A stretch of 32,000 nt of DNA from Candidatus Nanogingivalaceae bacterium (GCA_015257795.3 CP072208.2:90001-122000); one strand, 5' to 3'. Positions 3,347-29,897 are shown, numbered from the stretch's first letter. Made by a program: numbers and translations. Notes: a model not told the origin generated them from the letters alone.

Positions 3347-3352
3347 AGTGAT

Positions 3353-3675
3353 AGCTTGTTAAATGGTCGCTAATTGAAAAAATTAGAGGAAAGTCCGGGC
3401 AGTATAGAGCAAGACAGTTGCTAACGGCAACCGAGGGAAACCTTAGGGAAAGTGCCACAGAAACGATACCGCCTGAAAAGGTAAGGGTGAAAGGAGTGAG
3501 GTAAGAGCTCACAGTCGCTCACGGTGACGTGAAGCGAGAGGTAAACCCTGTCTACTGCAAGGAGAATTATAAAATATGGTTGCTCGCCATAATTCGATAA
3601 CCGCTTGATTTAAGGAGTAATTCTTAAACTAGATAGATGACCATTCACGACAGAACCCGGCTTACAGACAAGCTT
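3353..3675 (+). ncRNA. rnpB: RNase P RNA (bacterial type)
   Basis: Universally conserved GAGGAAAGTCCGGGC (P4 5' strand) and ACAGAACCCGGCTTA (P4 3' strand). The terminal helix pairs AGCTTGT (3353-) with ACAAGCT (-3675). Confidence 0.92.
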
Positions 3676-3690
3676 TTAATGAAAATAATA

Positions 3691-6438: not shown

Positions 6439-6816
6439 GGGGCTGAATTAGCTTTAGACAAGAGGAATTTAACAGTTTAGCTTGCAAGTCGTTTACTACG
6501 TAAAGTAATAAAATAAATGCAAAAAACTTTGCAGCTCGAGTTGCAGCATTCTTTGCTCCAGCTCCAGCAACAATTGCCGCTTAATTTTTTGGCAATCATT
6601 TTTTAAAACAGGGCAGTGCGTGTTTTAAAAAGTGTCATATATTTTTCACTGATAGTTTAAAACCTTGCGATAAGTTTTAAATGAGATTTTTTTCGCAACT
6701 TTTAATGTATTTTTGTTTATTTTTAGAGCATTAAATTTTATTTAGAATAGACTAAGCTTGTAGAAGGCTAAAATGTTACCTTTTGGACCCGAGGGCAGTT
6801 CTCGGCAGCTCCACCA
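6439..6816 (+). ncRNA. ssrA: tmRNA (SsrA)
   Basis: The 5' GGGGCTGAATTAGCTTTAGAC acceptor/D-like end and the 3' GGACCCGAGGGCAGTTCTCGGCAGCTCCACCA (T-arm-like plus CCA) are present. An internal tag reading frame runs GCA...TAA at 6519-6584. Confidence 0.9.
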
Positions 6817-7605: not shown

Positions 7606-7995
7606 ATGATTTCAAAAATTATTTTTAGTCTGTCTACATTATCTGGGGTTGGTCTATTTTTGATGCTAACCCAAACATCACCAAATAAAGTCGGTCCGCT
7701 CGGTATCCTTATTTTATTCATGATGGTGTATTTAGTATTTTTAGGAGTTATATCTTTTTTCTTGTACGGAAGTTATCGGGTGTTTTCGATTGCGGTTGTG
7801 TATTTTCGAAAAGGGCAACCAGTTGTTCAGAAAGAAGTTAAAACACCAGGATTCTTTTTAAAATATTCGGCTGCGTTAGCTTTTGCTCCAATTAGTTTAA
7901 TAGCAAAACAATCCACCGGCGGAGTTGGAATATTTGAAATATTGTTGTTAACGATAATTGAAATAATTGCAATAATTTACATTTCAAAACGTTAA
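7606..7995 (+). CDS. small integral membrane protein (hypothetical)
   Basis: A 129-aa ORF with about four hydrophobic helices. TGGTATTTA lies 6 nt upstream of the ATG. No family was recognised. Confidence 0.5.
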   Translation: MISKIIFSLSTLSGVGLFLMLTQTSPNKVGPLGILILFMMVYLVFLGVISFFLYGSYRVFSIAVVYFRKGQPVVQKEVKTPGFFLKYSAALAFAPISLIAKQSTGGVGIFEILLLTIIEIIAIIYISKR

Positions 7996-8018
7996 TGTTT
8001 ATGTTATAATGTTATTAT

Positions 8019-8435
8019 ATGGAACCGCAAAAAAATCTTGAAATTCCACGAGCTTTTGTGGCTCAGCCTGAGTCAATGAACAATAGTCCTCACGAAGTGG
8101 GGAATTTTGGCTTTGAAAAAGAAATAAATCAAATAGATAATGATAAGGCGAGAGCTGAAGCACTTCAAGCATTTTCGAATCAAGAGGGTCAGCCAACTGT
8201 GCAACCTCAGACTCAGCTTCCAGTCGTGCAAGACAGTCCATCTATACATCCAGCGCCTTTGGTTCCGGCGACAGCTAAGGATATTGACCTGATGGAAGAT
8301 GAGTGGGTTAAAGATTTGAAAAAAATGATTGTTGATACAAAAGGCGATCCTTACGCACGAGAAGTTCGATTCAAAGAAATGCAAATGGATTATTTAAAGA
8401 AAAGGTATAACAGAATTATAAATGGTGGGAAGTAA
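8019..8435 (+). CDS. hypothetical soluble protein with a Gln/Pro-rich centre
   Basis: A 138-aa ORF. Its stop overlaps the start of the next gene (TAATG at 8433-8437). TGTTATAAT (8002-8010) lies 8 nt upstream of the ATG. Confidence 0.5.
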   Translation: MEPQKNLEIPRAFVAQPESMNNSPHEVGNFGFEKEINQIDNDKARAEALQAFSNQEGQPTVQPQTQLPVVQDSPSIHPAPLVPATAKDIDLMEDEWVKDLKKMIVDTKGDPYAREVRFKEMQMDYLKKRYNRIINGGK

Positions 8436-11350
8436 TGAGTATTTGGATAATCTTATTTATTAGTTTTATAATTATATGTGTAGCTGCATATTTTGTCTTT
8501 GATCAGTATAAAAAAATGGTTCGTGAGGCTAAGAACTATGAGCGTGGGCTAAAAATGGTTCCTATTCGAATTCACCTTCCTCCACCAAGCGATGATCTTG
8601 AGACTGGTGGTCGCGATGAGCGTGATGTGGTCGATGAAGTTCTTTCTGAAGCTCAGACAATGTATAATATTATTGCTAGCACAGCAATGAAGGGCTTTAA
8701 GACGAGACTTTATGGTCAGAGGCATATTTCTTTCGAAATTGTAGCAAGTGATGGATTGGTTCGATATTACGCGGTGGTTCCAGCAGTTTTGACGGAAACA
8801 ATCAAACAAGCAATTTCTGCTGCATATCCTGCAGCAAGACTTGAAGAGGTTGAGATGGAAAACATTTTTTCTCAGCAGGGAAAAATGCAAGGTGTAATTG
8901 GGGGTGAATTCGAGCTTAAAAAAGATTTTTATTACCCAATTGCAACTTATCAGGAAAGTCGTAGAGATGCTGCCCGTGCCTTGCTCGACGCTTTAAGTGG
9001 GGTTGAACGCGGGGATGGAGCGGCTATTCAGATTATGTTTCGTCCAGCCCCAGAAAATTGGACAAATAAATCAAACCAAAAAGTTGAATCAATTCGAAAT
9101 GGTAAATCCAAAAAAAGCAGTGCAGCAGGCGCCCTTGACATAATGGAAGCCTTATGGAAACCGCCAACATACGGAATAAATAATTCATCGGCAGACTTTC
9201 CTCAATTAACGGCGCTAGAGAATGAAGAGATTCAAGCAATTGAAGATAAAACCAAATATCCAGGATATGAAGTTTTAACTCGAGTTATCACGTCTTCATC
9301 AACGGCCGCTAAAAGTCAAGCAATTTTACAATCTATCGTTTCAGCATTTTCGCTTTTTGATTCACCTCGTTATAACGGTTTTAAATTTAATATGACAACA
9401 GATGTTGATGAGCTTATTACCGCTTATATTTTTCGATTTTTCCCACAAAGTACGAATAAAAATATTTTGAACAGTGTAGAACTTTCGACAATATTTCATT
9501 TACCTGATCAAAATTCAATTCCTACAGGAAAGGTTGAACGGCAAAGAATCCGTCAAGTTGATGGGCCGACCGAACCAATGCGAGAAGGTTTGTTAATTGG
9601 AGTTAACGAATTCCGTGGCATTGAAAAACAGATTCGCCTTGGAATTAATGACCGCCGTCGACACACTTACATTATTGGACAAACTGGTATGGGTAAATCG
9701 AAACTTCTTGAAAATCTTGCTTATCAAGATATTATGGAAGGCCGAGGTTTTTGCTTTATCGATCCGCACGGAGATTCTGCTGAAGAACTTCTAGGGATGA
9801 TTCCTCAATCTCGAATGGATGATGTGATTTACTTTAATCCGAGTGATACTGAAAACCCATTAGGTTTTAATATTTTCGAAATTGAAAGTCCTGAAGATAT
9901 GGACTTTGTGATTTCTGAAACTAACTCGATGTTGAAATCGCTTTTCGATCCAGGAAACACGGGAGTTGTTGGTCCGCGAATGGAAAATATCGTGCGAAAT
10001 GCAGCCTTGTTGTTGATGAGTGATCCAGATGGTGGAACATTTATGGATATTCCAAAAGTTTTGGTTGATCCTGAATTTGCAAAGCAGAAAATTAAATACC
10101 TTCGAAATCAACGTGCGATTGATTTCTGGACGAAAGAGTGGCCTGCATCTCAAAGATCTAATGACGCGGGTGAGCTTGTTTCTTGGGTTGTTTCAAAATG
10201 GGCACCTTTCGAAAGTGGGTTAATTAACAATATTATTGGCCAGAAAAAAAGCGCCTTTAATATTCGAGAAGTAATGGATAATAATAAAATCTTGCTCGTT
10301 AACCTTTCTAAAGGTAAGCTTGGTGAAGCTGCCGCAAAGCTACTAGGTATGGTTTTCGTGATGAAATTCCAAGCAGCAGCGATGAGTCGAGCAGATATAC
10401 CTGAGGATGAGCGAAAAGACTTTTGTCTATTTGTTGACGAGTTCCAAAACTTTGCAACAGATTCGTTTGAATCAATTCTATCTGAAGCTCGAAAATACCG
10501 CTTGAATCTTATTCTTGCAAACCAGTTTACAACTCAGTTGAAGGATTCGATTAAAGATGCTATTTTCGGAAACGTTCCAAATAAAATTGTTGGTCGAGTT
10601 GGTATTGATGATGCTGAGATTCTTCAAAAGGCATTCACCCCAACGTTTACGGCAGAAGACCTAACTAAAACACCAAATTATAACTCAATTACAACAGTTT
10701 TGGTTAACGGTTTTCCTTCAGCGCCTTTCACGATGAAGCTTTTGCCACCAATTGGTCGTTCGAACTCGGAGATTCGTGAAGGTTTAAGGAAGTATTCTGC
10801 TTCAAAATACGGTAGGCCTCGTGCGATTGTTGAAGATGAGATTCGAAAGCGCTTAAGTGTTAACCCTACACCAAAGCCAGCTCAACGTCCTATGAGTCCT
10901 ACTGTTCCTCAAGTAGCACAAAAACCGCAGATTAGTTGGCAGGAAAGAGCGATTAACGCTACTGAACCGGCATCAGCTAATAGTTCTAGTAAGCCTCAAG
11001 ATTCTTTTCTTGATGATTGGATTAAAAAGCGTGATGAATTAAGAAATAAAACGGTAAGCACTGAAGAAAATAACGTGCCAAAGAGCAATTTAGCGCGAAC
11101 ATTTCAAAAGAATATTCTACAGACTCAGCAACAGAATTCAAGTGGATTACAAAATAAAAATAATCCACAAATTCAACAGCAGATTCGATCACCACAAATG
11201 CAGTATAATTCTGTGATCCAAGATATTACTTCTTCAAAAGAAGAGAAGGTAGAATCAAATCGATTATCGATACGGGAAGAGCCATCTCAGGATAAGACTG
11301 GTAGCATTAAAAAAATCGGTAACGATGAGGTAATATTTAAAATCAGGTAA
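8435..11350 (+). CDS. membrane-anchored FtsK/HerA-superfamily P-loop ATPase of the VirD4/TraD/TraG coupling-protein type, with a low-complexity Q/S/P-rich C-terminal tail
   Basis: One N-terminal TM helix (IWIILFISFIIICVAAYFVF), Walker A GQTGMGKS (9677-9700), FIDPHGD, Walker B CLFVDEFQNF (10424-10453) and LILANQF. The C-terminal ~150 aa are rich in Q, S, N and P. Confidence 0.6.
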   Translation: MSIWIILFISFIIICVAAYFVFDQYKKMVREAKNYERGLKMVPIRIHLPPPSDDLETGGRDERDVVDEVLSEAQTMYNIIASTAMKGFKTRLYGQRHISFEIVASDGLVRYYAVVPAVLTETIKQAISAAYPAARLEEVEMENIFSQQGKMQGVIGGEFELKKDFYYPIATYQESRRDAARALLDALSGVERGDGAAIQIMFRPAPENWTNKSNQKVESIRNGKSKKSSAAGALDIMEALWKPPTYGINNSSADFPQLTALENEEIQAIEDKTKYPGYEVLTRVITSSSTAAKSQAILQSIVSAFSLFDSPRYNGFKFNMTTDVDELITAYIFRFFPQSTNKNILNSVELSTIFHLPDQNSIPTGKVERQRIRQVDGPTEPMREGLLIGVNEFRGIEKQIRLGINDRRRHTYIIGQTGMGKSKLLENLAYQDIMEGRGFCFIDPHGDSAEELLGMIPQSRMDDVIYFNPSDTENPLGFNIFEIESPEDMDFVISETNSMLKSLFDPGNTGVVGPRMENIVRNAALLLMSDPDGGTFMDIPKVLVDPEFAKQKIKYLRNQRAIDFWTKEWPASQRSNDAGELVSWVVSKWAPFESGLINNIIGQKKSAFNIREVMDNNKILLVNLSKGKLGEAAAKLLGMVFVMKFQAAAMSRADIPEDERKDFCLFVDEFQNFATDSFESILSEARKYRLNLILANQFTTQLKDSIKDAIFGNVPNKIVGRVGIDDAEILQKAFTPTFTAEDLTKTPNYNSITTVLVNGFPSAPFTMKLLPPIGRSNSEIREGLRKYSASKYGRPRAIVEDEIRKRLSVNPTPKPAQRPMSPTVPQVAQKPQISWQERAINATEPASANSSSKPQDSFLDDWIKKRDELRNKTVSTEENNVPKSNLARTFQKNILQTQQQNSSGLQNKNNPQIQQQIRSPQMQYNSVIQDITSSKEEKVESNRLSIREEPSQDKTGSIKKIGNDEVIFKIR

Positions 11351-17657: not shown

Positions 17658-19185
<1,528 letters not shown>

Positions 19186-19343
19186 TAGGGAGAGTTATGC
19201 CAAAGGTTCGAGAAATCAACCTTTGAAGCTAGGTCGGTCTTTTCGAAAGTTTCTGTAAATTTTACTTTCGAATTCAGCCTGTAAAGGCAAGACTAAAGTT
19301 TACCGCAGACTGAGATAGATTGCACAATTAAGTTGTTAAAATT

Positions 19344-19376
19344 AAATAGCCTTTCGAAAGATCGGCTATTTTTATT
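19344..19376 (+). terminator. terminator-like hairpin inside the 16S-tRNA spacer
   Basis: AAATAGCC/GGCTATTT stem with TTTCGAAA in the loop, followed by TTTTT. Confidence 0.45.
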
Positions 19377-19391
19377 AATAAGAAAAAACCC

Positions 19392-19420
19392 TTGCATTTT
19401 ATTAATAAATAATATATACT
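19392..19420 (+). promoter_or_regulatory. candidate internal promoter TTGCAT-17 nt-TATACT ahead of the tRNAs
   Basis: Read directly. A second TATAGT is at 19423-19428. Confidence 0.45.
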
Positions 19421-19443
19421 ATTATAGTATTCATTAAAAATCT

Positions 19444-19520
19444 GGGGATATAGCTCAGTTGGCTAGAGCACCTGCTTTGCAAGCAGGGGGTCCAGGGTTC
19501 GAGTCCCTGTATCTCCACCA
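19444..19520 (+). tRNA. tRNA-Ala (anticodon TGC), CCA encoded
   Basis: GGGGATA acceptor with the G3:U70 pair, a CTTTGCAAG anticodon loop and a GGTTCGAGTCC T-arm. Confidence 0.93.
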
Positions 19521-19573
19521 AAGAAAGTTTTTGAATCTTTTTCGAAAATTCTCTTTGGCAAAAAGCCGAATAT

Positions 19574-19650
19574 GGGCGATTAGCTCAGCTGGTTAGAGCG
19601 CGTCACTGATAATGACGAGGTCGGAGGTTCAAGTCCCTCATCGCCCACCA
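19574..19650 (+). tRNA. tRNA-Ile (anticodon GAT), CCA encoded
   Basis: GGGCGAT acceptor, an ACTGATAAT anticodon loop and a GGTTCAAGTCC T-arm. Confidence 0.93.
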
Positions 19651-19654
19651 TAGA

Positions 19655-19677
19655 ACTCCCAAGTGGGAGTGTTTTTA
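19655..19677 (+). terminator. terminator-like hairpin after tRNA-Ile
   Basis: ACTCCC-AAGT-GGGAGT followed by GTTTTT. Confidence 0.5.
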
Positions 19678-19713
19678 TTTATTGCGAAAAATTAAAAAAA
19701 CATCCAAAAACTC

Positions 19714-19742
19714 TTGCATTCAAAAATAAAATGATATATAAT
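19714..19742 (+). promoter_or_regulatory. 23S promoter P1, TTGCAT-17 nt-TATAAT
   Basis: Read directly. The -10 is followed by AGT, as in the 16S, P2 and rnpB promoters. Confidence 0.5.
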
Positions 19743-19808
19743 AGTAATCACTTGCGAACGTTCATCCTGAACCTCTGGCTAAAAAGTCAATAAAATGATA
19801 AAAAACTA

Positions 19809-19837
19809 TTGACAAAAAATATTCAAAAATATATAAT
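19809..19837 (+). promoter_or_regulatory. 23S promoter P2, TTGACA-17 nt-TATAAT
   Basis: A perfect consensus read directly. A boxA-like TTTAACAAT follows at 19923-19931. Confidence 0.6.
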
Positions 19838-20010
19838 AGTAAAGCGTTTGAGATCAGGATGATAAGTTCGAATCTTTGTAAGATTGAATTTATAATTTTG
19901 CTCTTAAAATGGGAGCGAGAAATTTAACAATTTGGTGATGTAAAAGAAGATAAGAATTTAAGATTGACGGCAAGTATTTGGTTGTTACCAATTACTAGTT
20001 AAGTCAATGC

Positions 20011-23133
<3,123 letters not shown>

Positions 23134-23324
23134 GTCCATATTCACTAAAATAATCTTGTATTATTGGCGTGAATATGGTAGACTTAACTAGTGTTTGGTG
23201 ATTATCAAGGATAATCGCTAGTCAATCTAAAATCTTGGCATTACCAAATAATACCAAGGACATCGAAACGAGGTTTTGGCTCACCGCTTAGGAATTTGTG
23301 GCGAGTTGAAGCACAAAACCTTAT

Positions 23325-23432
23325 TTCGGTGCCCATGGCGCTGGGGAAACACCTGTTCTCATTCCGAACACAGAAGTTAAGCCCAGTAGCGGCGAGCATA
23401 CTGCGAAAGCGGGAAAATAGCACGGTGCCGAA
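23325..23432 (+). rRNA. rrf: 5S ribosomal RNA
   Basis: TTCGGTGCC...CCGAACACAGAAGTTAAGC...GGTGCCGAA, with helix I closing the two ends. Confidence 0.9.
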
Positions 23433-23440
23433 TTATAAAA

Positions 23441-23468
23441 AACTCCTCCTAACCGGTGGAGTTTTTTC
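23441..23468 (+). terminator. intrinsic terminator of the 23S-5S unit
   Basis: ACTCCTCC/GGTGGAGT hairpin followed by TTTTTT. Confidence 0.6.
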
Positions 23469-23516
23469 GTTGTTCATTTTTAGTCTTAAAAATACTAGTA
23501 AGAGTAGTGCTATAAT

Positions 23517-24374
23517 TCATTTATAATTTTTATATTCAAATACTTCACCTAATTCAATAGGAAATATTTTTACTTTTTGGCTATGTTTTCGAATCTTATC
23601 ACTTAATTCATTATATCTTTCAAGAGGAATTTCTACGTGAATAATATCATTAAAAGGAATATTATCTAAAGAACGAATCTCAGTTTCGCTAAATATTTTT
23701 GGCAATTTTGCAATTTTGTTTAGTTCTTTAATGCCAAGAATTACTGGGAAGTTTTCTCTAATATCAGAGTATTTTTCAAAAGATTCCCATGTATTTTTAC
23801 AAGATTTATTTACTTTTCCGCTCCAAGATTTTTTTGAATTTATTTTATTTTTCTTTCTCCAACTAAGAATATTCACAAGTGAACGCGGAGCAAGTATCGT
23901 ATATGCTAGAACATACATTTTTGTGTAGTGTCGCACAATCCAAAAAATACTATCGCCAAAACGAAAAGTTTTAGGATTCTTAAAATTATGATTATCCGCA
24001 TAGCATCTAGCAATAATTCTTTTATTTACTAGAGATATTGATTTCATACTTAATTTTTTAGAATAAATAATTAAGTAGTCATCTTGCTGGGTTTTTAATC
24101 CATTTTTTAAAATATTATCAAAAATTGGTGTAATATTTCTACTGGAATTATACTCAAAGCCTCCAGTTCCGTGCCAGAATTTTACATTTATAATACTATT
24201 TTTATACTCTTCTAGCTCATCTTCGGTAAAATTAGGTAAAGTATTCAAAAGTTGTTTTTTAAGCTCTAAAATCGCCTTATTTTGCGTTTTAGTTTTTAAT
24301 GAGTTTGGCAAGAAAAATATACAAATTTGCTTAGGCAACTTACGGTAGAACTTATTATTTATTCGAAAAAACAT
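23517..24374 (-). CDS. orphan protein, strongly AT-rich (hypothetical)
   Basis: Long ORF. The start is moved to ATG 24374 because TGCTATAAT (minus strand, 24389-24381) lies 6 nt upstream, and because the ORF-track N-terminus runs through the neighbouring gene's promoter. No family was recognised. Confidence 0.5.
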   Translation of the reverse strand: MFFRINNKFYRKLPKQICIFFLPNSLKTKTQNKAILELKKQLLNTLPNFTEDELEEYKNSIINVKFWHGTGGFEYNSSRNITPIFDNILKNGLKTQQDDYLIIYSKKLSMKSISLVNKRIIARCYADNHNFKNPKTFRFGDSIFWIVRHYTKMYVLAYTILAPRSLVNILSWRKKNKINSKKSWSGKVNKSCKNTWESFEKYSDIRENFPVILGIKELNKIAKLPKIFSETEIRSLDNIPFNDIIHVEIPLERYNELSDKIRKHSQKVKIFPIELGEVFEYKNYK

Positions 24375-24380
24375 AAGAAA

Positions 24381-24389
24381 ATTATAGCA
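24381..24389 (-). promoter_or_regulatory. extended -10 TGCTATAAT, 6 nt upstream of ATG 24374
   Basis: Read on the minus strand. Confidence 0.45.
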
Positions 24390-24447
24390 TAAACAGATTA
24401 GAAATACAAAAATATTATAATAAAATAAAAAAGTACTTATGTAAATA

Positions 24448-24476
24448 TTGACAAAAAGCATATGTTGTGCTATAAT
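24448..24476 (+). promoter_or_regulatory. perfect consensus promoter TTGACA-17 nt-TATAAT
   Basis: TTGACA 24448-24453 and TATAAT 24471-24476. Confidence 0.7.
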
Positions 24477-24529
24477 AAAAACATAATCAACAAAAAAGAT
24501 TAGATTTAATTAAAAATAAAGGAGATTAA

Positions 24530-24793
24530 ATGGCTGGAACTAAAGCTGGTGGCGCAAAAGCGGCCGCAACTAATAAAGCAAAATACGGTAAAGATTTTTA
24601 TTCACGCATTGGACAAAAAGGTGGTAAAAATGGAACAACTGGTGGTTTTGCCGCAAACCATGAACTTGCAAAAATTGCAGGTCGAAAAGGTGGACGTATT
24701 AGTCGTCGTGGACCCGCAACTACCTCAACTTCAACTCCAATTTCAATGATTGATGAATCTGAAGAATCGAAAATTGAAGTTCGAGTAGCTTAA
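24530..24793 (+). CDS. KGG-repeat general stress protein (YciG/GsiB-like)
   Basis: Gly/Lys-rich with repeats GQKGGKNG...GGFAANHELAKIAGRKGG, typical of the stress-induced KGG motif family. An AAAGGAG SD is present. Confidence 0.65.
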   Translation: MAGTKAGGAKAAATNKAKYGKDFYSRIGQKGGKNGTTGGFAANHELAKIAGRKGGRISRRGPATTSTSTPISMIDESEESKIEVRVA

Positions 24794-24801
24794 ATAAAAA
24801 T

Positions 24802-24837
24802 AAATCACGTTTTCGAAAGAGCGTGATTTATTTTTTT
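24802..24837. terminator. bidirectional intrinsic terminator
   Basis: AAATCACG/CGTGATTT stem with TTTCGAAA in the loop, flanked by A- and T-runs. Confidence 0.65.
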
Positions 24838-25280
24838 ATTCTGCGTAAGTTTTTAAACCTAGAATCGTTAACTTGCCAAACAGTACTGCAGGCGGGACAT
24901 TTATAGTTTAAGTCTGTCTGCTGAAAGCCATTTATTTGACAATTTGGACACAAGCTCCTCTTGTGGAGCCAATCTCGGTAAGTGTCAAGTTTTTCTTCGA
25001 TAAAGTTTGAGTCAAAACAAATTCCATATTGAGCTGCGAGTGAGTTTTTTGCGAATTCCCAAGCTTCGGACTCCATTTTTAAAAGCTCAATATCGAGAAA
25101 ATAATTTTCGTGACCAAGAAGTGCGTGTGATAATTCATGCAAAATTAACAGATGAAAATGCGAAGAGTCTGGATCGAAAAAAATAGTATTTTCTTGCTTT
25201 GACCAACGAAAATCGTCGCTTTCTTTAAAATTAAATTGCGGAAAATCTTTGCGTAAAGCTTTAACGAAATCTAGATTCAT
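24828..25280 (-). CDS. ImmA/IrrE-like HExxH zinc metallopeptidase domain with a C-terminal CxxC...CxxC zinc ribbon
   Basis: LILHELSHALLGHE resembles the ImmA/IrrE (DUF955) motif. CPNCQ...CPACS lies at the C-terminus. Confidence 0.45.
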   Translation of the reverse strand: MNLDFVKALRKDFPQFNFKESDDFRWSKQENTIFFDPDSSHFHLLILHELSHALLGHENYFLDIELLKMESEAWEFAKNSLAAQYGICFDSNFIEEKLDTYRDWLHKRSLCPNCQINGFQQTDLNYKCPACSTVWQVNDSRFKNLRRIKK

Positions 25281-25281
25281 A

Positions 25282-26106
25282 CTAAAAGTTTAGAGCCTTT
25301 TTTGCGAATTCAAAACAGCCATAAATCACGGCTTCTCGAGGTTTTTCAGCTTTAATAATTTCTGGGCAGACAATTCCGCTTGGTAGATTTTCGGCTAGAA
25401 TTCGCTTTAAAAATAGATCAAATTTTTCAAAATTTTCGCCCAAGCTACCGCCAACTACAATAACGTCAGGCTGAATTATTGGAATAATCACCAAAAAACC
25501 ACGCGCAACTCTATCGGCGATATGTTTCCAATGTCGTGGATTGGTTATATCTTTGGCGTATTTTCCGTAAACGTTGAAAATTGCCCGTGCGCTCGCAAAA
25601 TCTTCCCATTCTCGAATTCGGCCATCAAATTCAATTGGAATTCGGCCAATCTCACTATTTTTTAAGCCGTGATTAATTTTTCCATCTGTAATTATACCCG
25701 AACCAATGCCAGTTGAAAGTGTTACGTAAAGAATATTTTGGGCTTTATTTTTGAATTTTTTACTTTCGAAAAGACCCGCAAGATTGGCATCATTTTCAAC
25801 TAGAATTTTAGGCTCCGGAAAGATTTTCGAAAGCTCATCTTTGATTTTAAAGTTTGTCCAGCCTAAATTTTTTGCCCATGCGATAGTTTCATTTTGAATA
25901 ATTCCTGGTTCAGCGCAAGAAATTGCCTCAATTTGGCTATTTCTTAATTCTTTCGAAAACTCTTTTTTGATAATTTTTTCGATAATTTCAAGGTATTTTG
26001 ATTTCGATTTTGGTGTTTCAAATTCGAAAGACTTTAAAACTTTTCCTTCTTTCGAAAATCCTGCTAATAAAGTTTTTGTTCCACCCGTATCTATCGCAAT
26101 AATCAT
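25282..26106 (-). CDS. ROK-family sugar kinase (probable glucokinase)
   Basis: IIAIDTGGTKT N-terminal ATP motif, ENDANLAGL, and GIGSGII. Confidence 0.75.
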   Translation of the reverse strand: MIIAIDTGGTKTLLAGFSKEGKVLKSFEFETPKSKSKYLEIIEKIIKKEFSKELRNSQIEAISCAEPGIIQNETIAWAKNLGWTNFKIKDELSKIFPEPKILVENDANLAGLFESKKFKNKAQNILYVTLSTGIGSGIITDGKINHGLKNSEIGRIPIEFDGRIREWEDFASARAIFNVYGKYAKDITNPRHWKHIADRVARGFLVIIPIIQPDVIVVGGSLGENFEKFDLFLKRILAENLPSGIVCPEIIKAEKPREAVIYGCFEFAKKALNF

Positions 26107-26167
26107 AATTCTATTTTACGATGAAAGAGTCAAAAATTCAACCTTCGAAAAACTCTAAAACTAAAAC

Positions 26168-26202
26168 TTGACAAAACTGTTCGGGGGGGGGGGGGGTATA
26201 AT
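26168..26202 (+). promoter_or_regulatory. TTGACA / TATAAT promoter whose spacer contains a G14 tract (23-nt spacer as sequenced)
   Basis: TTGACA 26168-26173, G14 26183-26196 and TATAAT 26197-26202. Confidence 0.55.
26183..26196. repeat. homopolymeric G14 tract
   Basis: Counted directly. It is the only long G/C homopolymer in this AT-rich window. Confidence 0.95.
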
Positions 26203-26239
26203 TAGAGCGTAATTTTTTAATATTTTTTTAAGGAGAAAT

Positions 26240-26791
26240 GTGAATAATTTCAACTCATTTAACACTCAGCCGAAATGTTTAGAGAAAGAAGTAGATAAAT
26301 TCGGTAATTTAACATATGACAAAACGGGAACGAACCTTGATAATCTTGTTGACGATCTTAGACACGGCTATAGGGAAAGAAGTTTTGTTGCTACAGCTGA
26401 TGCATATAAAGATACTTTATTTCAAAGGCTTGTTGGTGCAGGAAATTACGTTGCAAATACGGGGCAAGAACCAATTTCATCTGTGCTAAAAATGGATAAC
26501 GGCAATTATATTGTTACTCATGCTGGCTTTATGGGATTGGTTAAAACTAACAAAGAAGGTAAAGCACAGCTAGAAGATCTTATTGATATGAACGATAAGG
26601 ATGAAGATTTCAATCCATACAAAGGTCTTACTATCGGCCAACCAACTGATAGAGGAAATACTCCTGTAGCGCTAACAATTCTTAATAGGGGAAATAGAGG
26701 TGTTCAAGATTCACACGATAATACGGATTATCTGGAGTTTAGAAAAGGCTTGAGTCGGCAAATTATAGACTACTACGAAAATATGAAATAA
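26240..26791 (+). CDS. orphan 183-aa protein (hypothetical), GTG start
   Basis: The ORF is open from 26213, with an AAGGAG SD at 26230-26235 and GTG at 26240. There is no signal peptide or TM helix, and no family was recognised. Confidence 0.5.
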   Translation: MNNFNSFNTQPKCLEKEVDKFGNLTYDKTGTNLDNLVDDLRHGYRERSFVATADAYKDTLFQRLVGAGNYVANTGQEPISSVLKMDNGNYIVTHAGFMGLVKTNKEGKAQLEDLIDMNDKDEDFNPYKGLTIGQPTDRGNTPVALTILNRGNRGVQDSHDNTDYLEFRKGLSRQIIDYYENMK

Positions 26792-26806
26792 ACTATACAT
26801 CAAAAA

Positions 26807-26835
26807 ATAACCTTCAAAAACGAGGGTTATTTTTA
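26807..26835 (+). terminator. intrinsic terminator
   Basis: ATAACCTTC/GAGGGTTAT 9-bp stem followed by a T-run. Confidence 0.65.
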
Positions 26836-26845
26836 GTTTTAATGC

Positions 26846-26874
26846 TTGAAAAATCTTTAAAAATCTGTTAAAAT
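26846..26874 (+). promoter_or_regulatory. rpsA promoter TTGAAA-17 nt-TAAAAT with TGn
   Basis: Read directly. Confidence 0.55.
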
Positions 26875-26949
26875 GGTAGCAATCTATTGGGCAGGTTAAT
26901 TTTAGCTATGTTCAAAGAAATACAATTAAGGAAGGAGTCTTAAAGACTA

Positions 26950-28017
26950 ATGGCTGAAGCCAAAAAACTAACTATGGACGAATTGTTGGCGTCTGCTCCA
27001 GAGAGCGTAAACCAACTAAACCAAGGCGAAACTGTTGAAGGTAAAATTCTTTCAGTTCGCAAGCACGAAATCTTGATTGACTTGGGTGCTAAAGGTGTTG
27101 GATTTGTTCCTCGCCGAGAAGCTGGTCATTCAAAAAATCTTGTTGAAGGTGAAACAGTAACAGCAAGCGTTGTTGATACAGAAATGGACAACGGAATGTC
27201 ACTACTTTCTCTTCGAAAAGCTGCGAAAGATCGCGGTTGGGAAGAAATTATTGCAAAAATGGAAAACGGTGAAACTATCGAAATCGTTCCATTTGACGCT
27301 AACCGAGGTGGCTTGCTTGTTGAATACGAAGGAATCCGCGGATTCTTGCCTGTATCACAACTTTCAGCAGAACACTACCCACGAGTTGGTGCAAGCGACA
27401 AAGATGAGATTTTGAGCCGATTGAATGTTCTTATCGATAAACCAATCAGCGTTCGAATCCTTGACGCAGATCGCAAAACTAACAAGTTAATCTTTAGCGA
27501 AAAAGAAGCTATCAAAGATGGTTTGAACGAACGATTTGATAGCCTAAAAATTGGCGACGTAGTTGAAGGTGTTGCTACTGGTGTTGTTGATTTTGGTGTT
27601 TTCGTAAATATTGAAGGAATTGAAGGTTTGGTGCACATTTCTGAAATTTCCTGGGAACGCGTAAACAATCCAAAAGATTACGTTAAAGTTGGTGACACTA
27701 TCAAAGCTAAAATCATCGCTATTGATAAAGATCGCTTAAGCCTTTCAATGAAACAACTAACTGAAGACCCATGGCTTTCAGAAGTTGAGCAATTCAAAAA
27801 AGGTTCGAAAGTTGAAGGAACTGTAACTCGAATTACGCCTTTCGGCGCTTTCGTAAAAATTAGCCCAGCGATTGAAGCGCTTGTTCACGTTTCAGAACTT
27901 GGCAAAGGCAACGATGTTAACCCAGAAAATATCTTTACTCTAAACGAGCGAAAAGAATTTGTAGTTATTGACATCGACAAAGAAAATCGAAAAATTTCTC
28001 TTAGCCTTGTAAAATAA
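26950..28017 (+). CDS. rpsA: 30S ribosomal protein S1 (short, four S1 domains)
   Basis: Four repeats of the G..V.G.V......G.FV......G..H.SE pattern over 355 aa. Confidence 0.85.
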   Translation: MAEAKKLTMDELLASAPESVNQLNQGETVEGKILSVRKHEILIDLGAKGVGFVPRREAGHSKNLVEGETVTASVVDTEMDNGMSLLSLRKAAKDRGWEEIIAKMENGETIEIVPFDANRGGLLVEYEGIRGFLPVSQLSAEHYPRVGASDKDEILSRLNVLIDKPISVRILDADRKTNKLIFSEKEAIKDGLNERFDSLKIGDVVEGVATGVVDFGVFVNIEGIEGLVHISEISWERVNNPKDYVKVGDTIKAKIIAIDKDRLSLSMKQLTEDPWLSEVEQFKKGSKVEGTVTRITPFGAFVKISPAIEALVHVSELGKGNDVNPENIFTLNERKEFVVIDIDKENRKISLSLVK

Positions 28018-28018
28018 T

Positions 28019-28083
28019 TTAAGCATTCTTGCGTTGAACAGTCGGAAATCGGTTTCGAAATCGGTTTCCGAACTTCAGCTTAA
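28019..28083 (+). other. extended palindromic structure between rpsA and infB
   Basis: A 28-nt near-perfect palindrome (28043-28070) is built from a perfect tandem duplication of GAAATCGGTTTC (28045-28056 and 28057-28068). It is closed by an outer TTAAGC/GCTTAA stem. Confidence 0.6.
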
Positions 28084-28109
28084 GAAAATAAAAAACCAAA
28101 GGAGGTTGT

Positions 28110-29897
28110 ATGAGTCAGAAGAAAATTGTAAATATCACAGATTCGATTACTGTTGATGAGTTGGCTGGGGCCTTAAATCTTTCTGTTACAACTTTAATTG
28201 GCGAACTTTTTAAAAACGGAATTGTTGCGACGATTAATCAGCGAATAGATTTCGAAACGGCGGTAATTGTTGTTGAAGAGCTTGGGCTAAAAGATGTTGA
28301 GCTTAAAAAGAAAGCTAAAGCAGATGAAGTGACTTCTCGCTTAAATAAATTGCATGAAGTGTCAGAGAATGCGAAACCTCGCCCACCAATTGTTGCAGTT
28401 ATGGGTCACGTTGACCACGGAAAAACAACGTTGCTTGATACGATTCTTGGAACGAAAACGGTTTCGGGTGAAGCTGGTGGAATCACTCAACATATTTCAG
28501 CCTATCAAACCGAAAGAAAAGGCCGAAAAATTACACTTCTTGATACGCCGGGTCATGAAGCTTTTGCGGCTCTTCGTCAACACGGAGCAACCCTAACAGA
28601 TGTTGTTATTATCGTTGTTGCGGCCGATGATGGTGTTAAGCCTCAAACTGTTGAAGCAATTCGCTTTGCGCAAAATGCCAATGCAAAAATCGTTGTTGCA
28701 ATTAATAAAATGGATAAAGACACAGCAAATAAAGATCGTGTCATGGCTGAACTTTCAGAACGCGGCTTGATGCCAGAAGAGTGGGGTGGCGATGTAACAA
28801 TGGTGCCGATTTCTGCCAAAACTGGCGAAGGTATCGATAATCTTCTTGATATGGTGATTTTAACAGCTGATCTAGAAGAGTTGCGCGCTGATGTGGATAT
28901 TCCTGCTGAAGGCTTGGTTATTGAGTCGCACATGGAAGTTGGAAAAGGCTCTGTTGTTTCGCTTCTTGTCGAACAAGGTGATCTAAAACAGGGTGGATTC
29001 TTGGTTGCTGGAACAACTTATGCGAAAGTTCGAACACTTCAAGATTACAAAGGTGATGCACTCAAAATTGCTGGTCCTTCAACACCTGCAACGGTAACGG
29101 GCTTTAAAGAGTTGCCTCAATTCGGTGATGTCTTCAAAGTAGTTAAAAGCGAAAAAATTGCGCGACATCTTGCACAAAAAGCTAAAATCGAAGCTGCTCA
29201 AAATGCGGCAACAGCCAATGTTACAGGTGCGGATTTGCTAAAAATGATGAACCAAAAACATGACGCAGAAGATTTTAACATTGTTATTAAGGCTGACGTT
29301 CAAGGTTCACTAACATCTGTTTCAGATAGCCTCAGGTTGATTGAAACTGGCGGTGAAGTTAACTTAAATATTATTAGTAGCGGAATCGGTAATATCACTG
29401 AAAACGATATCCATTTGGCGGCCGCTGGTGAAAAAACAATTATTTATGGCTTTAACGTTGAGCTTTCACCGGCGATCAAAAAAATTGCGACACGCGATCG
29501 TGTTGAAGTTCGAATCTATAAAGTTATCTATGAACTTCTTGACGACGCGCGCGCAGAAATGGAAAAACTTCTTGCGCCAGAAGTTGTTGAAACCGAGGTT
29601 GGTTCATTGGATGTGAAAGGTGTTTTCCGCACAATGAAAGAAGAAATCATTGCTGGTGGAGAAGTAAAATCTGGTCGCGTTTATGCTGGTTTGCTCGCTC
29701 GCGTAATTCGAAAGAAAGAGCAAATTGCTGAGGTTGAAGTTTCGCACGTTCAACGTCAACAACAAGAGGCAAAAGATGTTATTGAAGGTGAAATGTGTGG
29801 ACTTTCGCTCAAGACTAAAAAGAAAATTCAGCTAGAAGTTGGCGACAAACTTGAATTCTTTACACGTGAAGTTGTTGCTCGCAAGCTAAAGGGTTAA
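28110..29897 (+). CDS. infB: translation initiation factor IF-2 (short N-terminus)
   Basis: RPPIVAVMGHVDHGKTTLLD, DTPGH and NKMD GTPase motifs. An AAAGGAGG SD is present. Confidence 0.95.
   Translation: MSQKKIVNITDSITVDELAGALNLSVTTLIGELFKNGIVATINQRIDFETAVIVVEELGLKDVELKKKAKADEVTSRLNKLHEVSENAKPRPPIVAVMGHVDHGKTTLLDTILGTKTVSGEAGGITQHISAYQTERKGRKITLLDTPGHEAFAALRQHGATLTDVVIIVVAADDGVKPQTVEAIRFAQNANAKIVVAINKMDKDTANKDRVMAELSERGLMPEEWGGDVTMVPISAKTGEGIDNLLDMVILTADLEELRADVDIPAEGLVIESHMEVGKGSVVSLLVEQGDLKQGGFLVAGTTYAKVRTLQDYKGDALKIAGPSTPATVTGFKELPQFGDVFKVVKSEKIARHLAQKAKIEAAQNAATANVTGADLLKMMNQKHDAEDFNIVIKADVQGSLTSVSDSLRLIETGGEVNLNIISSGIGNITENDIHLAAAGEKTIIYGFNVELSPAIKKIATRDRVEVRIYKVIYELLDDARAEMEKLLAPEVVETEVGSLDVKGVFRTMKEEIIAGGEVKSGRVYAGLLARVIRKKEQIAEVEVSHVQRQQQEAKDVIEGEMCGLSLKTKKKIQLEVGDKLEFFTREVVARKLKG

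Follow-up and report, generated by a model that had tools for sequence, protein, structure and literature searches.

The locus examined here lies in a 32,000-nucleotide stretch of DNA from a Candidatus Nanogingivalaceae bacterium (GCA_015257795.3, CP072208.2:90001-122000), referred to below, at its full length, as the window. An orphan gene encoding a protein of 183 amino acids is preceded by a sigma-70-type pair of -35 and -10 hexamers, and most of the space between these hexamers is occupied by an uninterrupted run of G residues (Table 1).

The locus, its promoter and its neighbours

The order of the genes, in which the ROK-family sugar kinase gene lies upstream and is divergent, and the orphan open reading frame (ORF) is followed by the genes of ribosomal protein S1 and IF-2, is found in nearly all of the complete loci, and at one of them (L037) the gene called in place of the ROK gene encodes just 49 aa. 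The intrinsic terminator downstream of the ORF has a fold energy of -14.2 kcal/mol (z = -4.2 relative to shuffled sequences) and is conserved in the relatives, and the S1 gene that comes next has a promoter-like site of its own, so that the unit would appear to be composed of a promoter, one gene, and a terminator.

The putative promoter of the ROK gene is a block that is conserved across the lineages and does not overlap the tract. The tract itself is unlikely to form part of this divergent promoter, given its distance of more than 40 nt from the best candidates (26105-26141). The best -10 candidate of the ROK gene, TAAAAT (26118-26113, minus strand), ends 6 nt 5' of the ROK ATG (26106), and a Shine-Dalgarno sequence is absent, which suggests a leaderless ROK mRNA. 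Directly 3' of the ROK gene, in the same orientation and 1 nt past its stop codon, lies a gene whose 150-aa product carries an HExxH motif and, at its C-terminus, a zinc ribbon; this product has a weak match to Peptidase_M78/ImmA-IrrE and a match to the PHROG 87 metalloprotease family (E = 2.7e-07).

Elsewhere in the window, a 971-aa protein bears a DUF8128 signature together with weak TraG/TrwB (type IV coupling protein-like) signatures, and its gene is preceded on the 5' side by two small ORFs that belong to no family (129 and 138 aa), an arrangement that is kept in several oral metagenome contigs. The window also holds the RNase P RNA, the tmRNA, and a complete rRNA operon, with the 16S, two tRNAs, the 23S, and the 5S.

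In the window, the sequence around the promoter of the orphan gene is ACTTGACAAAACTGTTCGGGGGGGGGGGGGGTATAATTAGAGCG, and the spacer (26174-26196) has 23 nt, being made up of AAACTGTTC followed by G14. The -10 hexamer is separated by 37 nt from the start of the ORF, which is led by a Shine-Dalgarno sequence and has the terminator at its end. The initial annotation of this DNA had placed the -35 hexamer, the spacer, the G14 run, the -10 hexamer, the ORF, and the overlap of an ATG-TGA pair with the GTG start, and every one of these coordinates is borne out by direct reading. The run had also been singled out as a compositional outlier, which holds in a window with a G+C content of 38%, where the longest runs apart from G14 are of five G and four C, and where simple arithmetic with P(G) = 0.21 puts the expected number of runs of at least 14 G at about 1e-5 per window. 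Other than the tract, no G or C run of at least 7 nt is present in the 379 kb of related G6 loci that were fetched.

The promoter scan makes no call at the poly-G site, because it is limited to spacers of 16-18 nt and the spacer here has 23 nt, and Rfam returned no RNA element in the region of the tract. The terminal poly-G artefact of Illumina sequencing is ruled out for this run, which is internal and has conserved flanks on both sides.

Table 1. Coordinates of the features of the orphan-gene locus and of other elements in the window.
Feature	Position	Strand	Basis or context
-35 hexamer TTGACA	26168-26173	+	direct reading
Fixed part of the spacer, AAACTGTTC, 9 nt	26174-26182	+	direct reading and comparison of 47 loci
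Poly-G tract	26183-26196	+	G14 in the window, G10 in CP076102.2, G6-G12 in relatives
-10 hexamer TATAAT	26197-26202	+	direct reading
Shine-Dalgarno AAGGAG, 4 nt 5' of the start codon	26230-26235	+	direct reading
183-aa ORF, GTG start, acidic, soluble, clade-restricted	26240-26791	+	translation
Intrinsic terminator, 13-bp stem and T-rich tail	26803-26843	+	terminator scan
Putative divergent ROK promoter, TTGAAT-17-TAAAAT	26113-26141	-	promoter scan, 9/12 matches
ROK-family sugar kinase, divergent upstream neighbour	25282-26106	-	Pfam PF00480, E = 3.9e-33
150-aa HExxH protein	24828-25280	-	
971-aa DUF8128 protein	7606-11350	+	
RNase P RNA	3351-3680		
tmRNA	6439-6816		
rRNA operon	17658-23433		
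Promoter-like site TTGACT-17-TATAAT	17504		5' of 16S
Promoter-like site TTGACA-17-TATAAT	19809		5' of 23S
Promoter-like site TTGACA-17-TATAAT	24448		5' of KGG-repeat stress protein gene
Promoter-like site TTGACC-17-TATAAT	2480	-	

Conservation and length variation of the tract

The orthologous loci were collected through a pattern scan of metagenome contigs in which the gap between the flanks was left free, through a protein-based scan of the GTDB species representatives, and through look-ups of the exact product for ten members of the family. The loci come from many human oral samples and from several assemblers, and both flanks are present in all 47 of the alleles tallied, among which the G14 of the window is counted.

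At every locus, the same layout, TTGAC[AC]-AAACT[GA]TTC-G(n)-[TCA]AT[AG]AT, is found 5' of the orthologous gene. The -35 hexamer is TTGACA in 37 loci and TTGACC in the other 10, the -10 hexamer is TATAAT in 28, TATGAT in 10, CATAAT in eight, and AATAAT in one, and the nine fixed nucleotides of the spacer are identical throughout, save for a single G/A variant (AAACTATTC). The placement that defines spacer-length variation, a homopolymer (for which about 7 nt is the usual minimum) between sigma-70-type -35 and -10 hexamers, is thus present in the window and at 47/47 complete orthologous sites, and the Shine-Dalgarno sequence is kept across the lineages in the form of aaggag, aaggaagg, or aaggat. 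The lineages that carry the tract have proteins that are 60-97% identical and are separated by a synonymous divergence of 0.5-1.2, and the best-conserved part of the intergenic sequence is formed by the -35 hexamer, the nine fixed nucleotides, and the -10 hexamer. The run of G is uninterrupted at 46 of the 47 sites, the one interruption being a G7CG allele (L052). Given that a neutral G run would be expected to decay at such a degree of divergence in DNA with 38% G+C, the integrity of the tract appears to be maintained across the diverged lineages.

The same pattern bears on the alternative that the hexamers do not form a working promoter, in which case the ORF would be transcribed from elsewhere, or barely expressed, and the tract would be a neutral intergenic hotspot. 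The G10 and G11 alleles do place the hexamers 19-20 nt apart, and the 16-18 nt scan is silent at the site, as this explanation would have it. The intergenic region, however, spans only 133 nt, in which the divergent ROK promoter is also housed, and nowhere in it is there a further promoter close to the consensus; the conservation of the two hexamers and the fixed spacer, and the persistence of an uninterrupted G run, also run counter to neutrality. This alternative is considered very improbable.

The length of the tract is variable. The most common allele is G10 (23 loci), followed by G11 (10) and G9 (six), with two loci each for G6, G7, and G12, and one each for G7CG and for the G14 of the window. 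The G8 allele, which corresponds to the predicted optimum of 17 nt, is absent from the 47 tracts, even though G7 and G9 occur, which may possibly be a matter of sampling. Different lengths are found within lineages that share an identical protein, that is, G7, G10, and G11 in one lineage (P0016), G9, G10, and G11 across two others, with the protein identical within each (P0002 and P0009), G10 and G11 in a fourth (P0015), and G11 and G12 in a fifth (P0013). A single fixed length in related strains, which the initial annotation had named as grounds for refutation, is not what is seen: the tract length varies among them (6 to 14), and it does so even between pairs that are otherwise only 0-2 SNPs apart over 1.4-3.3 kb, in which it differs by 1-4 G.

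Two G7 sequences (L022 and L029), for example, differ from a G11 sequence (L028) by 0-1 SNP over flanks of 2.6-3.0 kb, while two SNPs over 3.3 kb separate a G10 from a G11 locus (L023 and L024), and also a further G11 locus (L020) from four G10 loci. In another pair, G10 and G11 (L031 and L034) are one SNP apart over 1.4 kb. In the P0015 group (seven sequences, 3.4 kb) and the P0002 group (three sequences, 1.4 kb), the tract is the sole indel. Near-identical sequences that differ by exactly 4 G are found in two cases (G7/G11 and G10/G14), a coincidence that sampling may explain.

Poly-G sequences are difficult for Illumina and nanopore sequencing alike, and the alternative in which the G14 is a miscall, and the lengths that differ between assemblies are errors at a homopolymer of fixed length, must be weighed at this point. 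Several of the assemblies have a low coverage (about 4x), and in five independent assemblies (L030, L033, L035, L038, and L039) the 5' end of the contig falls at or inside the tract, which fits either reads of heterogeneous length or a poor coverage of poly-G. The single-G differences among the low-coverage metagenome assemblies could therefore be technical in origin. The differences of 3-4 G, such as those of G7 with G10 or G11 and of G6 with G9-G11, and the G7CG allele are, by contrast, too large or too specific for miscalls, and G7 recurs in L022 and L029, contigs that were assembled separately and have different run and assembly accessions; these differences are not technical. The initial annotation had allowed for an artefact of assembly or of homopolymer sequencing, and in this respect the tract itself, which was recovered together with both flanks from 47 assemblies made independently, with several assemblers and from many samples, stands, whereas its length of 14 in the window does not, given the G10 of another version of the genome.

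This other version, CP076102.2 (GCA_015257785.3, 691,584 bp), is JB003, a "Candidatus Nanogingivalaceae" of the Saccharibacteria clade G6 (HMT-870), a metagenome-assembled genome (MAG) closed from a saliva metagenome with nanopore and Illumina reads, polished with Medaka and Pilon, and with its rRNA regions restored by hand (PMC8386444, PMC9600527). Its authors noted that the polishing pipelines had residual differences just in homopolymers and short repeats (PMC9600527), which speaks for an error at the tract. It encodes the exact product of the ORF, and the window maps to its positions 90001-122000. When compared over window positions 1-21349 and 23236-29791 (~28 kb), the two sequences have no substitutions and only three indel differences, and they are therefore two versions of one assembly. 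One of the differences is at the tract, where CP076102.2 has four G fewer than the window (G10 and G14), and the other two are in the rRNA genes. In the 16S, CP076102.2 has a GA inserted in the universally conserved motif CCTACGGGAGGCAGCAG, giving CCTACGGGAGAGGCAGCAG (window site 18042), and in the 23S it lacks one G of a conserved stretch (window site 20925). At both of these sites, the canonical sequence is that of the window and the non-canonical one that of CP076102.2, and the window is thus not simply the cruder or worse-polished version.

The G14 is also the extreme among the 47 alleles, the mode of which is G10. Given that CP076102.2 reads G10, the length of 14 is disputed and not reproducible, while the tract itself is real. 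The 14-nt length given in the initial annotation is contradicted on this point, in a nanopore-based MAG of the kind in which homopolymers are a known weak spot, and the G14 would represent either a rare long (OFF) allele or an error of homopolymer calling or polishing for G10. An artefact is a likely enough source of the single value of 14, for which the chances are about even, and is unlikely for the phenomenon as a whole; as an account of the length variation in general, it is improbable. As the deposited versions of the genome disagree at the tract, its length should not be read from an assembly.

The orphan gene and its product

The orthologues share the position of the start and an N-terminal M[KN]NFNSFN, with an ATG start in the sister lineages, and the dN/dS between distant lineages is 0.15-0.35, which marks the ORF as a real gene. 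Between some of the closer lineages (L015/L022, L037/L057, and L052/L057), the dN/dS is 0.66-1.05, which hints at a relaxed or diversifying selection on the protein.

The overlap of the GTG start (26240) with an out-of-frame ATG-TGA pair (26238-26243), which had been remarked upon as unusual, is real, but the pair is present only where a GTG start follows AT. A role as a regulatory start-stop is ruled out, as the sister lineages start with ATG exactly where the GTG is and lack such a pair, and the overlap is therefore incidental.

The protein has a pI of 5.2, is hydrophilic, and belongs to a tiny family that is essentially confined to the clade. It has no match in Pfam, PADLOC, PHROG, NCBIfam, or the sequences of the PDB. 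The AF2 model (pLDDT 79, pTM 0.80) confidently predicts an antiparallel sheet packed on a long C-terminal helix, for which Foldseek found no neighbours at E<0.001 in the PDB or BFVD. The designation of the gene as an orphan is thus upheld by the sequence-family, structure-prediction, and Foldseek checks, which gave no match to a family or fold. No signal peptide or membrane segment was found in the 183-aa protein, and the gene is therefore not a classical surface gene like those of Neisseria, Haemophilus, and Mycoplasma that the initial annotation had cited. A soluble, acidic product is unlike the surface proteins or modification enzymes that are usual under such switches.

A number of alleles of the gene are disrupted. 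In one MAG (L014; CAUUHU010000005.1, 2380-2760), a 376-bp deletion between TAAAACTAA direct repeats, which corresponds to window positions 26165-26540, removes the -35 hexamer, the G tract, the -10 hexamer, and the first ~100 codons, which results in a null allele. Another lineage (L011/P0005) has an A7-to-A6 frameshift at about codon 16 (L011:2757-2830), two proteins (P0010 and P0026) have C-terminal frameshifts and end in ...QPTNQPTGVILL, a 99-aa product that begins at Met85 (P0027) is found on 26 contigs, and one locus (L008) has a 78-nt in-frame deletion in the ORF. Other than the deletion in L014, these disrupted alleles may represent either real decay or assembly error. Given this repeated damage by deletion and frameshift, the gene appears to be dispensable, as contingency genes are, and fast-evolving.

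Spacer length and its proposed effect on the expression of the gene

Four other intergenic promoter-like sites in the window, with 11-12 of 12 matches to the consensus, all have spacers of 17 nt (Table 1), and because these strong sites share the same spacing, the organism appears to have the canonical geometry of sigma-70 promoters. The estimate of the initial annotation, that the optimal spacing would be reached at about 8-9 G, agrees with this, as the length of the spacer at the poly-G site would be 9 + n, where n is the number of G.

The reading that is favoured here, with moderate confidence, is that of a slipped-strand expression dial of the porA/tp0126 type acting on a small orphan gene. 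Slipped-strand mispairing at replication would result in the gain or loss of G residues, and hence in a change of spacing between the hexamers. A tract of G8 would provide the optimum of 17 nt, as in the other strong promoters of the organism, while G7 (16 nt) and G9 (18 nt) would be near-optimal, G10 (19 nt) would weaken the promoter, and G6, or G11 and longer tracts, would leave it largely inactive. The transcription of the ORF would be dialled or switched in this way, heritably and reversibly, as in Neisseria porA or Treponema tp0126, for both of which such a mechanism has been demonstrated by experiment (PMC7864442). The sequences themselves show how the promoter is built, that the tract keeps its place and integrity across the lineages, that its length differs among near-identical strains, and that 17 nt is the norm at the other promoters. 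The conserved layout points to the -35 hexamer, tract, and -10 hexamer as the probable working promoter of the ORF, and the dependence of transcription on the length of the tract is proposed by analogy with the characterised systems. Frequent changes of the tract within a population are likewise supposed, with indirect hints in the five contigs that end at the tract and in the two versions of one assembly that disagree there, as heterogeneous reads would make them do, and the variability of the tract may be under selection.

The G7CG allele of L052 has a tract of 9 nt and thus a fixed spacer of 18 nt, and such a frozen spacer fits 17-18 nt as the functional spacing. The modal allele in almost every lineage is G10, with its spacer of 19 nt, and this mode is not an obvious ON state. 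Taken with the absence of G8, it would mean either that expression of the gene is generally low or OFF, or that a spacing rule like that of E. coli does not apply here.

The mode is also a point in favour of the alternative in which the G run is a cis-element with another role, for example in binding a regulator or, as a stiff block of G·C beside the -10, in promoter melting, and its length variation is slippage noise. The position of the run is conserved, its flanks are nearly invariant, and a G10 mode common to lineages with 60-97% identity has the look of stabilising selection for a length other than the sigma-70 optimum; in T. pallidum, moreover, the poly-G near the -10 of tprL acts with the -35/-10 spacing unchanged (PMC7864442). 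Alleles from G6 to G12, with spacers of 15-21 nt, which are seen in part among strains with an identical protein, nevertheless fit poorly with a length-specific element, the run lies strictly inside the hexamer pair, so that any change in its length alters their spacing and relative rotation, and no regulator-type motif or palindrome was seen in the sequence. A cis-element of this type is thus regarded as unlikely, and the slipped-strand dial is retained as the preferred reading.

Repeats that alter expression are known from several bacteria. In Mycoplasma hyorhinis, the promoter spacer of the vlp genes contains a poly-A, in Haemophilus influenzae, TA repeats are found between the divergent promoters of hifA and hifB, in Campylobacter jejuni, most of the poly-G tracts of the contingency loci lie within coding sequences, and in Neisseria meningitidis, opc has a poly-C at the -35. 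The original work on porA and opc is reportedly that of van der Ende in 1995 and of Sarkari in 1994. At vlp, hif, and the C. jejuni loci, a simple sequence repeat (SSR) alters the reading frame or the geometry of a promoter, as is proposed for the present site, and the genomes are likewise small or AT-rich, so that a lone G/C run is conspicuous in them; the type or position of the repeat is different. As in hif, the repeat is located in a divergent intergenic region, but the hif repeat is common to both promoters, whereas the tract here lies outside the predicted ROK promoter.

In N. meningitidis porA, there is likewise a homopolymer between the -35 and -10 hexamers, and the length of this poly-G in the spacer sets high, medium, or no expression through the spacing (PMC7864442). 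Unlike the orphan gene, porA and opc encode surface porins or adhesins, in a proteobacterium with more than 100 SSR loci (PMC5084427). The modal lengths of porA correspond to ON states, furthermore, while for the mode here, G10 (19 nt), a suboptimal promoter is predicted.

In Treponema pallidum tp0126, as here, a run of G (about 7-12 in that species) lies between the hexamers of a sigma-70-type promoter, and it has been shown experimentally that transcription is optimal with a spacer of 17 nt (PMC7864442). Promoter poly-G tracts are also found at tprE/G/J and tprL, and T. pallidum, which has a small genome and is host-associated as well, has tract lengths that vary both within and between isolates (PMC7864442). 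The genes of T. pallidum encode putative outer-membrane proteins, however, in contrast with the soluble orphan protein of the present locus, and the many tracts of that species contrast with the single one in the DNA covered here. The heterogeneity and the effects on reporters were measured in T. pallidum, whereas the evidence here comes from the comparison of sequences.

The site, at the level of its sequence, has the features of the promoter-spacer class of SSR, that is, the placement, the length polymorphism, and the maintained position. The mechanism is known, being of the porA, tp0126, or vlp type, and is apparently new for the Saccharibacteria and the Candidate Phyla Radiation (CPR). Full-text searches of the literature gave no report of such a mechanism in the Saccharibacteria or CPR, in line with the initial annotation, which was not aware of a description in the Saccharibacteria, and the nearest match from the CPR is an intragenic 9-mer repeat in a Gracilibacterium, which is nothing comparable.

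In the Saccharibacteria, as in the rest of the CPR, genomes are tiny and recognisable regulators few, and the variation of expression in these organisms is little understood. A tentative proposal, which is rather doubtful as it stands, is that several species of clade G6 have a single, selectively maintained poly-G dial, in which G8 is systematically avoided and null alleles are recurrent, with a clade-specific soluble product, of a fold unlike any known, that is transiently useful and otherwise costly. If so, the transient use may lie, for example, in dealings with the bacterial host, phage, or the human host. The poly-G dial, if true, would be the first SSR phase variation to be documented for a member of the Candidate Phyla Radiation, and the orphan protein would represent a trait on which selection in the mouth fluctuates, and thus a candidate for studies of the interactions of the uncultured G6 clade with phage or between episymbiont and host. 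If the switch is conserved, the Saccharibacteria would share a stochastic strategy with pathogens that have small genomes, among them Treponema, Mycoplasma, Neisseria, and Campylobacter.
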